Sequence record: PQ471516.1
DNA: 64,000 bases
Reading direction: 5' to 3' (one strand)
Source: Escherichia phage Turkey5
Shown here: one piece after another, positions 35,570 to 36,511 of the stretch
Layout: each line of letters opens with the position of its first letter
Numbering within the stretch: the stretch's first letter is position 1
Program-made: the position numbers and the translations under genes
Notes under the pieces: model-generated
Told to the model about the DNA's origin: nothing
The model's database searches: none
Seen by the model: the letters and a program-made list of their open reading frames with translations, nothing else

Positions 35570-35895
35570 ATAATAAAAGTATATACAATAAAGTACCTGA
35601 AGGGTATGTACCAACCCCAAAGGTTGACAAGAGTAGAGAGATTAGTTTGTTAAGGCAGGGTTCGATTACTGAGATTACACTTGATGGGTCAACCTTTCAA
35701 GTATCTGATCCAGTACGAATTGAAAAGATAATTAAACTTGTTGAAAGACACGATGAGCGATTGTATAATATGAATCAGGAATTATTACAATACAAGCGTG
35801 CGTGTGCACAGTTGGAACAGAAAGTCAACAAACTTTCCGTAACTGTGAATAAATTACAGGAGCAGATTAAGAATGCAGGACTCGACAGGTTCTAA
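35566..35895 (+). CDS. hypothetical protein (109 aa)
   Basis: ORF track; ATGA overlap with upstream gene. Confidence 0.45.
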   Translation: MNNKSIYNKVPEGYVPTPKVDKSREISLLRQGSITEITLDGSTFQVSDPVRIEKIIKLVERHDERLYNMNQELLQYKRACAQLEQKVNKLSVTVNKLQEQIKNAGLDRF

Positions 35896-36511
35896 TCATT
35901 ACAGAAAAGCAAGAACTGATATTGACATTGACTTCAAAGATAGTAAGTCAGTGATTGCCATGTTACCTTGCATTAGAAGTACTGAAAAAATTACCGAAGA
36001 TGGATTGATTGCACACAATAGTGGTGTTCATTTTGATAACATCCCAGTTGACCCAATCTCCGGTCTAGCAAGCATTCAATACAAAGAAGCCGAAAGATTG
36101 GGATACCAAAAGGTTGATATCCTGTCACAATCGGCTTATATGTACGTGCGTGACAGAAAACATCTAAAGGAACTTATGAATCGTGAACCAGACTGGAGTC
36201 ACTTATTAGTACCGGAAATTGTTGACAATCTATCACAAATTAAAAAACACATAACGTTACTTAACGTTTGGAAACCGCAAACTATCGACCAACTAGCTAT
36301 GTTTATCGCTATGATTCGACCAGGTAAACGCGAATGCCAAAGTATGAACACATGGTCTGAAGTTGAGGCGGTTATTTGGGATTACAGCACTATCGGTACA
36401 GATCAGAGTGGAAACAAGCTACGCTACTTCAAAAAGCCACATGCTTATGCATATAGCTTAATGATTGTCGTGCAACTTAATGCACTGGTTGAACATCTTA
36501 CTTCTTCTTAA
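35873..36511 (+). CDS. DnaE (Pol III alpha) palm-like mini-protein
   Basis: 212 aa with motifs in DnaE order: TDIDIDF (cf. PDFDIDF), KVDILSQ (cf. KFDFLGL), AMFIAMIRPGK (cf. ALVALFRPGP). Confidence 0.5.
   Translation: MQDSTGSNHYRKARTDIDIDFKDSKSVIAMLPCIRSTEKITEDGLIAHNSGVHFDNIPVDPISGLASIQYKEAERLGYQKVDILSQSAYMYVRDRKHLKELMNREPDWSHLLVPEIVDNLSQIKKHITLLNVWKPQTIDQLAMFIAMIRPGKRECQSMNTWSEVEAVIWDYSTIGTDQSGNKLRYFKKPHAYAYSLMIVVQLNALVEHLTSS

Follow-up and report, generated by a model that had tools for sequence, protein, structure and literature searches.

A 212-residue protein of Escherichia phage Turkey5 as the predicted C-terminal half of a split, minimal relative of DNA polymerase III alpha

The locus and the phage family

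In a 64,000-nucleotide stretch of DNA from Escherichia phage Turkey5 (PQ471516.1; the whole stretch is called the window below), an open reading frame (ORF) on the plus strand at 35873..36511, running from an ATG to a TAA codon, encodes a protein of 212 residues. Judged by its sequence, this protein is a shrunken relative of the catalytic core of the bacterial replicase DnaE/PolC, the DNA polymerase (Pol) III alpha. An earlier note on this DNA, made from the letters alone, had proposed a miniaturized DnaE core on the basis of three motifs and had taken it for a stand-alone fragment. The ORF and the motifs are real, since they can be read directly from the sequence and located to residues: TDIDIDF occupies residues 15-21, KVDILSQ residues 80-86, and QTIDQLAMFIAMIRPGK residues 136-152. 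A fourth DnaE motif, YFKKPHAYAYS (residues 185-195; compare GFNKSHSAAYA, residues 755-765 in Escherichia coli), had been overlooked. Instead of standing alone, the protein appears to be the C-terminal half (C-half) of a two-gene enzyme, the N-terminal half (N-half) of which is a separate 172-residue protein encoded ~31 kb downstream in the related phage vB_EcoM_JNE01. The features of the C-half gene are as follows:

35858..35862 (+): AGGAG, likely ribosome-binding site, read from the sequence, 10 nt 5' of the ATG and within the end of the preceding gene
35873..36511 (+): codes for the metal- and template-binding C-terminal half of the predicted split minimal Pol III alpha, 212 aa
35918..35932 (+): codons of D16-I-D18-I-D20, invariant in 28 homologues and aligned with the DnaE aspartates
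36110..36118 (+): codons of K80-V-D82; K80 and D82 are invariant, aligned with KMDFLGL of Mycobacterium tuberculosis DnaE1
36317..36328 (+): codons of R149-P-G-K152, counterpart of FRPG (R639-P640-G641), the motif with which the DnaE fingers start
36428..36454 (+): codons of F186-K-K-P-H190-A-Y-A-Y194, matching F756-N-K758-S-H760-S-A-A-Y764 in E. coli

The window is 98.3% identical to JNE01 (Asteriusvirus, OR670491.1) and ~79% identical to 121Q/PBECO4-type phages; by sequence, its source is an Asteriusvirus/RaK2-like jumbo phage. The search of related phages for the same small ORF, which the earlier note had proposed, was successful: tblastn matched the C-half protein in 95 phage records, and its carriers are RaK2-, GAP32/CBB-, PA5oct-, XacN1-, Atu_ph07-type and related jumbo phages. 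The family comprises 371 clusters in a set of 5.8 billion, and 562 representatives at E <= 0.001, nearly all of 185-215 aa, in a set of 1.84 billion. The protein belongs to phrog_11778 'DNA polymerase' (E = 2e-102), its homologues are named 'DNA polymerase' or 'DNA polymerase III alpha' in several existing records, and the RefSeq and PHROGs label of DNA polymerase was already in place. The C-half is therefore already known: it is named in both resources, and a 2021 paper describes it (PMC7824862). The same window encodes a complete family B polymerase of 1002 aa at 15129..18137 (PF03104, E = 3e-22; PF00136, E = 1e-21), as the earlier note had stated.

Relationship to DnaE and PolC

With the single 212-residue sequence as query, phmmer against the PDB returned nothing relevant (E > 0.4), and the curated gathering thresholds of PF07733 and PF17657 were not reached by the ORF. 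Alignment of 28 homologues, down to 41% identity, revealed invariant residues at D16, D18, D20, H48, G51, P58, K80, D82, R149, P150, K152, K187, H190, Y194, Q201 and N203, and the invariance of the catalytic residues over this range takes the resemblance to DnaE beyond the low-complexity coincidence that the earlier note had considered. The profile built from these 28 sequences had M. tuberculosis DnaE1 as its best match in the PDB and only Pol III alpha among its best matches. The match to DnaE1 is made up of four colinear pieces, in which DIDIDF corresponds to residues 413-424, the KxD...RPG region to residues 568-669, and FKKxHxxxY to residues 765-788. PF17657 (Pol III finger domain) gave weak matches in 13 of the 28 homologues (best E = 0.0078). 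A joint profile, made from an alignment of fused sequences (described below) together with the separate halves (alignment A3), matched E. coli DnaE with E = 1.4e-10. All nine of its PDB matches were Pol III alpha, and its alignment to E. coli DnaE covers residues 319-419 without interruption, followed by residues 616-641 and 752-768.

An AlphaFold2 model of the C-half, built on the alignment, had a predicted local distance difference test score (pLDDT) of 91.3 and contains strand E81-85. The fold is that of a Pol-beta-like palm with fingers, structurally nearest to DnaE/PolC: in a Foldseek search the first 11 PDB matches were Pol III alpha throughout, and the structure-based matches were specific to C-family polymerases. 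For a model of the fused form, the next structural neighbors after the C-family polymerases were ANT(2''), Rel/SpoT, CCA-adding enzymes and MenT toxins. The colinear profile matches, the Foldseek results and the joint profile thus bear out the miniaturized DnaE/PolC core of the earlier note.

Residue equivalences and missing parts

In the alignments, D16, D18 and D20 correspond to D401, D403 and D405 of E. coli DnaE (PDFDVDF, 400-406), and the strand carrying them to MPDIDIDF of M. tuberculosis DnaE1. K80-V-D82 lies opposite KMDFLGL in DnaE1, and we take it to be the counterpart of K553-F-D555 in E. coli. R149-P-G aligns with E. coli R639-P640-G641 and likewise with M. tuberculosis DnaE1, while K188, H190 and Y194 align with E. 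coli K758, H760 and Y764. In Pol III alpha, D401, D403 and D555 are active-site residues, and H760 is an invariant histidine that presumptively acts as a steric gate against ribonucleotides (PMC8485763). By alignment, the C-half carries the three catalytic carboxylates (D16, D18 and D82) and the steric-gate histidine (H190) of a C-family polymerase. The three catalytic aspartates stand where the earlier note had placed them, in register with DnaE and invariant in the homologues.

The motifs are more closely spaced than in E. coli DnaE. The distance from DxD to KxD is 64 residues in the C-half and 152 in E. coli, and this shortfall of 88 residues is about the size of the thumb, which is missing; Lamers et al. 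in 2006 are said to have assigned the thumb to residues 433-510. Similarly, 41 residues separate the RPG motif from the gate histidine, compared with 121 in E. coli, so that ~80 residues of the fingers are gone. The protein stops 18 residues past Y194, and everything from the outer fingers through the clamp-, DNA- and tau-binding C-terminus (HhH, OB) is therefore absent. At the other end, only 14 residues precede the DxDxD strand, so neither the PHP domain nor the palm's first part with its GRGS loop is in the C-half. This triphosphate-binding GS (GRGS) loop was not found within the 212-residue polypeptide and is located on the separate N-half. Neither Pfam matches nor motif spacing revealed PHP, thumb, clamp-binding/HhH or OB domains in the 212-residue protein, and besides the Mg-chelating residues and the remnant of the fingers it has no additional Pfam domain.

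The N-half and evidence that the halves belong together

The N-half gene of JNE01 is located at 217635..218153 (L003 9636..10154), ~31.7 kb downstream of the C-half gene. Its 172-aa product matches positions 16-95 of PF07733 with E = 9e-9, above the curated cut-off, and its C-terminus reads ...GLGRGSSVASYCLFLIDLHMVDSLKYNLDVNEFLKW / ...FWGLGRGSSVASYCLFLIDLHMVDSLKYNLDVNEFLKW. Searches of the 64-kb window by tblastn, with the N-terminal parts of the fused proteins and with the JNE01 N-half, found no N-half, and the partner gene is therefore not inside the window. Base 64000 of the window corresponds to JNE01 position 214751; since the N-half starts at 217635, the gene is expected ~2.9 kb past the end of the window. 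JNE01 coordinates run ahead of those of the window by 150014 at the C-half and by 150751 at 58-64 kb, which places ~737 bp of extra sequence in JNE01 (or the net of several indels) between ~36.5 and 58 kb. The genome paper of phage CBB lists a 'truncated' 172-aa Pol III alpha, CBB_328, which lies 34 kb downstream of the C-half homologue of that phage.

The two halves are inherited together. Each was found by tblastn in 95 phage records, with nearly equal counts per genus (C-half/N-half: Escherichia 33/33, Pseudomonas 11/11, Salmonella 8/8 and Erwinia 8/8), yet the two genes are 14 to 224 kb apart and never adjacent. Rare unsplit forms also exist: P0182, P0270 and P0271 are proteins of 375-376 aa with 78-81% mutual identity, and P0265 is a second, shorter unsplit mini Pol III of 336 aa, with DYDIE instead of DIDID. 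Alignment of P0182 with whole stand-alone N-halves covers its residues 10-180 (E = 1e-22 to 1e-32), and its residues 190-375 match C-halves. Only a few columns of alignment A3 separate the ends of the N-halves from the starts of the C-halves, between ...EFLK and the DxDxD strand, which maps the split point between E. coli residues ~393 and ~398. The PF07733 match of the fused protein (model positions 12-121) spans this junction, and the fused proteins, like the N-half, score above the gathering threshold of PF07733. On the metagenomic contig L005, which carries P0271 and is the only such contig examined, the next two genes after the fused one are homologues of those that come after the C-half gene in the window, i.e. 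the minus-strand gene at 36498..36911 and a structural protein at 36877..37887.

A further sequence, P0267 (233 aa), consists of the first 110 residues of a C-half joined to a different tail, which presumably resembles a pseudouridine synthase; it is probably the product of a chimeric contig.

In CBB a few genes separate the N-half gene from the clamp-loader gene downstream of it. The gene order of PA5oct points to a similar arrangement, and the equivalent ORF (309 aa) has no annotation there. Each half is thus linked to a different replisome module, the N-half to the clamp loader and the C-half to the primase and DnaB.

Gene neighborhood

The C-half gene belongs to a replication/recombination block and lies three genes upstream of those for the primase and the DnaB helicase. 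The order of genes is retained as far as PA5oct, whose C-half is 41% identical: zinc-finger protein, C-half, small minus-strand gene, structural protein, primase and DnaB. Pfam searches with the neighboring ORFs gave nothing further apart from DnaB. Three other genes of the region are as follows:

35566..35895 (+): 109-aa coiled-coil ORF, phrog_14909 'virion structural protein', called 'tail needle protein gp26' in phage fEgEco12
36498..36911 (-): 137-aa ORF, phrog_11637, no Pfam match; converges on the C-half gene, with a 14-nt overlap with its 3' end
30687..31505 (+): DnaQ/RNase T-type 3'-5' exonuclease, 272 aa (PF00929, E = 2e-14), with an ExoX-like C-terminus

The 109-aa ORF and the start of the C-half gene share 23 nt, so that translation of a structural-looking gene may be coupled to that of a replication gene. 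Next to the C-half in GAP32 (GAP32_283) and PA5oct (gp263), and next to the fused gene on L005, there is likewise a homologous or equivalent gene on the minus strand; in fEgEco12 a plus-strand ORF is annotated at the position of the minus-strand 137-aa ORF. The exonuclease gene lies five genes upstream of the C-half in the same replication block, and its homologue is described as Pol III epsilon-like in the CBB paper. In bacteria epsilon is bound by the PHP domain, which the mini Pol III lacks. The best sigma-70-like match in the 33-38 kb region is at 35741..35769 (+), within the preceding gene and ~100 nt 5' of the ATG (TTGAAA-17-TATAAT, 11/12); a promoter and terminator scan of the same region gave no more sites than shuffled sequence. 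The omics paper on PA5oct does not mention the C-half gene.

Proposed activity and alternative explanations

We consider it probable that the 212-residue protein is the C-half of a two-piece minimal C-family enzyme of RaK2/121Q/PA5oct-type jumbo phages that adds deoxynucleoside triphosphates (dNTPs) on a primer-template. The homology, the fold, the residue equivalences, the position of the split, the co-occurrence of the halves, the fused forms and the purifying selection were all obtained by computation; heterodimer formation, the dNTP and DNA substrates and the biological role are what we infer. In the proposed mechanism, the 172- and 212-residue proteins would associate to form one Pol-beta-like palm with a stub of the fingers. 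The association would have to be non-covalent, since both halves align end to end with their fused relatives and leave no spare sequence. The N-half would supply the GRGS loop that grips the triphosphate, and the C-half would supply the three aspartates (D16, D18 and D82), K80, the gate helix (K188, H190 and Y194) and the reduced fingers with RPG. The rebuilt active site would then add deoxynucleotides to a primer on a DNA template, as indicated by the conserved steric-gate histidine and the fingers motifs. Because it has no thumb and no clamp contacts, the enzyme would be expected to work distributively, and a distributive enzyme would suit an auxiliary, short-patch role beside the T4-type family B replicase, such as repair, gap filling or primer extension. 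More tentatively, and with considerable doubt, the split itself may be functional, with the mini-enzyme capable of work beyond the reach of an ordinary replicase, for instance extending primase products, filling gaps in recombination-dependent replication or carrying out non-templated transfer; as the halves are in different transcription units, an active site would then form only when and where both are made.

Several observations weigh against a templated two-piece polymerase. The 212-residue ORF alone has no Pfam match at threshold and one irrelevant match below it, and the C-half profile by itself scores weakly against the PDB (E = 0.031). The N-half gene of the source phage falls beyond the end of the window and is known from JNE01, not seen directly. 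The support for the predicted interaction of the halves consists of their co-occurrence, the fused homologues and the model of the fused form. At the position of E. coli R390, alignment A3 has a conserved Glu in the phage N-halves (...NEFLK), so the nucleotide pocket may differ from that of DnaE. With no thumb, cut-down fingers and no clamp-binding region, templated synthesis is not assured, and a literature search for biochemistry or genetics of a split or minimal Pol III found none for any member.

Some of these points are shared by the strongest alternative, in which the two pieces form an active enzyme for another kind of nucleotidyl transfer, for example one that adds tails to DNA or RNA ends without a template or makes a nucleotide signal or an anti-defence product. 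The motif spacing and the length of 212 residues leave no thumb, clamp-binding, HhH or OB parts, the closest neighbors of the fused model outside the C-family are small Pol-beta-fold transferases, and the Glu in place of R390 would fit here as well. Retention of the gate histidine and of motifs of the fingers favors addition of dNTPs on a primer-template, and we hold another kind of transfer to be unlikely. Less likely by a good deal is that the 212-residue protein acts without the 172-residue one, as a monomeric or homodimeric minimal nucleotidyltransferase, a possibility raised in the earlier note. All three metal-binding aspartates are on the 212-residue protein, and its gene never adjoins that of the N-half at any of the distances recorded; the triphosphate-binding loop is on the N-half, and the two genes occur in equal numbers of records.

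The earlier note had also suggested a remnant or a regulatory decoy. Both the length, about one-sixth of that of DnaE, and the complete family B polymerase that the phage already has would be in keeping with an acquired dnaE in decay, or with a decoy or regulator that has no activity. However, comparison of the C-half with its fEgEco12 orthologue gave a ratio of nonsynonymous to synonymous substitution rates (dN/dS) of 0.056 (proportions of synonymous and nonsynonymous differences, pS 0.65 and pN 0.08), a value that is approximate because dS is near saturation. This low ratio, the catalytic residues that remain invariant to 41% identity, the constant length (more than 500 representatives, 562 at E <= 0.001) and the synteny retained over distant genera together argue against decay or inactivity, and we regard both as highly improbable. 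Scarcely worth entertaining is the reading, found in some GenBank annotations, of a protein of the membrane or the virion ('putative membrane protein', with 'virion structural protein' for the flanking gene): TMHMM/Phobius give one transmembrane helix in GAP32_282 and the neighboring genes encode structural proteins confirmed by mass spectrometry in PA5oct, but the hydrophobic C-terminal helix (188-211), from which the membrane label derives, corresponds to the helix of the DnaE fingers with H760 and Y764, for which reason this label was rejected, and the PA5oct homologue gp264 has no tandem mass spectrometry (MS/MS) note, whereas its neighbor gp262 has one.

With 384 residues over two chains, the predicted two-piece enzyme would be smaller than any other natural form of the bacterial replicase fold known so far, and it is found alongside a family B replicase. 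Should the pair be active, it would represent the C-family polymerases' minimal catalytic unit, which bears on the origin of the family, and it would provide a natural case of an active site built from two distantly encoded proteins. The practical yield is modest: the motif-based call was correct, the element is in the literature, and the partner gene lies just past the window.

Comparison with known systems

Compared with DnaE and PolC (PDB 2hpi, 2hnh, 5lew and 3f2b), the phage enzyme is reduced to 212 aa, or 384 aa as a pair, from roughly 1160 aa. The PHP domain, the thumb and most of the fingers are gone, as are the clamp-binding, HhH, OB and tau-binding parts; the palm is divided over two polypeptides, and sequence identity is only 14-19%. 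As a single-chain palm and the PHP, thumb and clamp/OB/tau parts are all lacking, we speak of a minimal relative of Pol III alpha instead of Pol III alpha itself. With ANT(2''), MenT, CCA-adding enzymes and Rel/SpoT synthetases it shares the core nucleotidyltransferase fold with an acidic triad.

In cyanobacteria, DnaE is encoded by dnaE-n and dnaE-c, the products of which are joined by intein protein trans-splicing. The phage enzyme resembles this system in that a C-family polymerase comes from two far-apart genes. The break point is different, however, and the phage halves carry no intein: split-intein halves were not found at the phage break point, where the last residues of the N-half are exactly ...EFLKW and no more than 14 residues of the C-half precede DxDxD. 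Intein-mediated joining was rejected, as there is no spare sequence at the junction.

The closest counterpart is the split minimal Pol III alpha of group 2.2 jumbo phages described by Iyer et al. (2021, Viruses 13:63; PMC7824862). As far as their account of this group extends, the phages are the same (RaK2/121Q/GAP32/PA5oct/XacN1/Atu_ph07-type myoviruses with a T4-like family B polymerase), the N-terminal unit that binds nucleoside triphosphates (NTPs) and the C-terminal one that binds Mg and template are likewise encoded by distant genes, and PHP and other Pol III domains are likewise absent. The separate, distant N-unit is found in JNE01 as the 172-aa protein 31.7 kb from the C-half, with 95 records for each unit. 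On sequence and by that description, in which no point of difference was found, the 212-residue protein is identified as the C-terminal unit of the group 2.2 enzyme. In the same account, Iyer et al. suggest a role in strand-specific synthesis or repair and that the split enzyme could be a living model of the ancestral C-family polymerase core (PMC7824862). The present analysis adds slightly to that account: unsplit proteins, one of them encoded at the locus of the C-half, a precise break point and scores from structure comparison.
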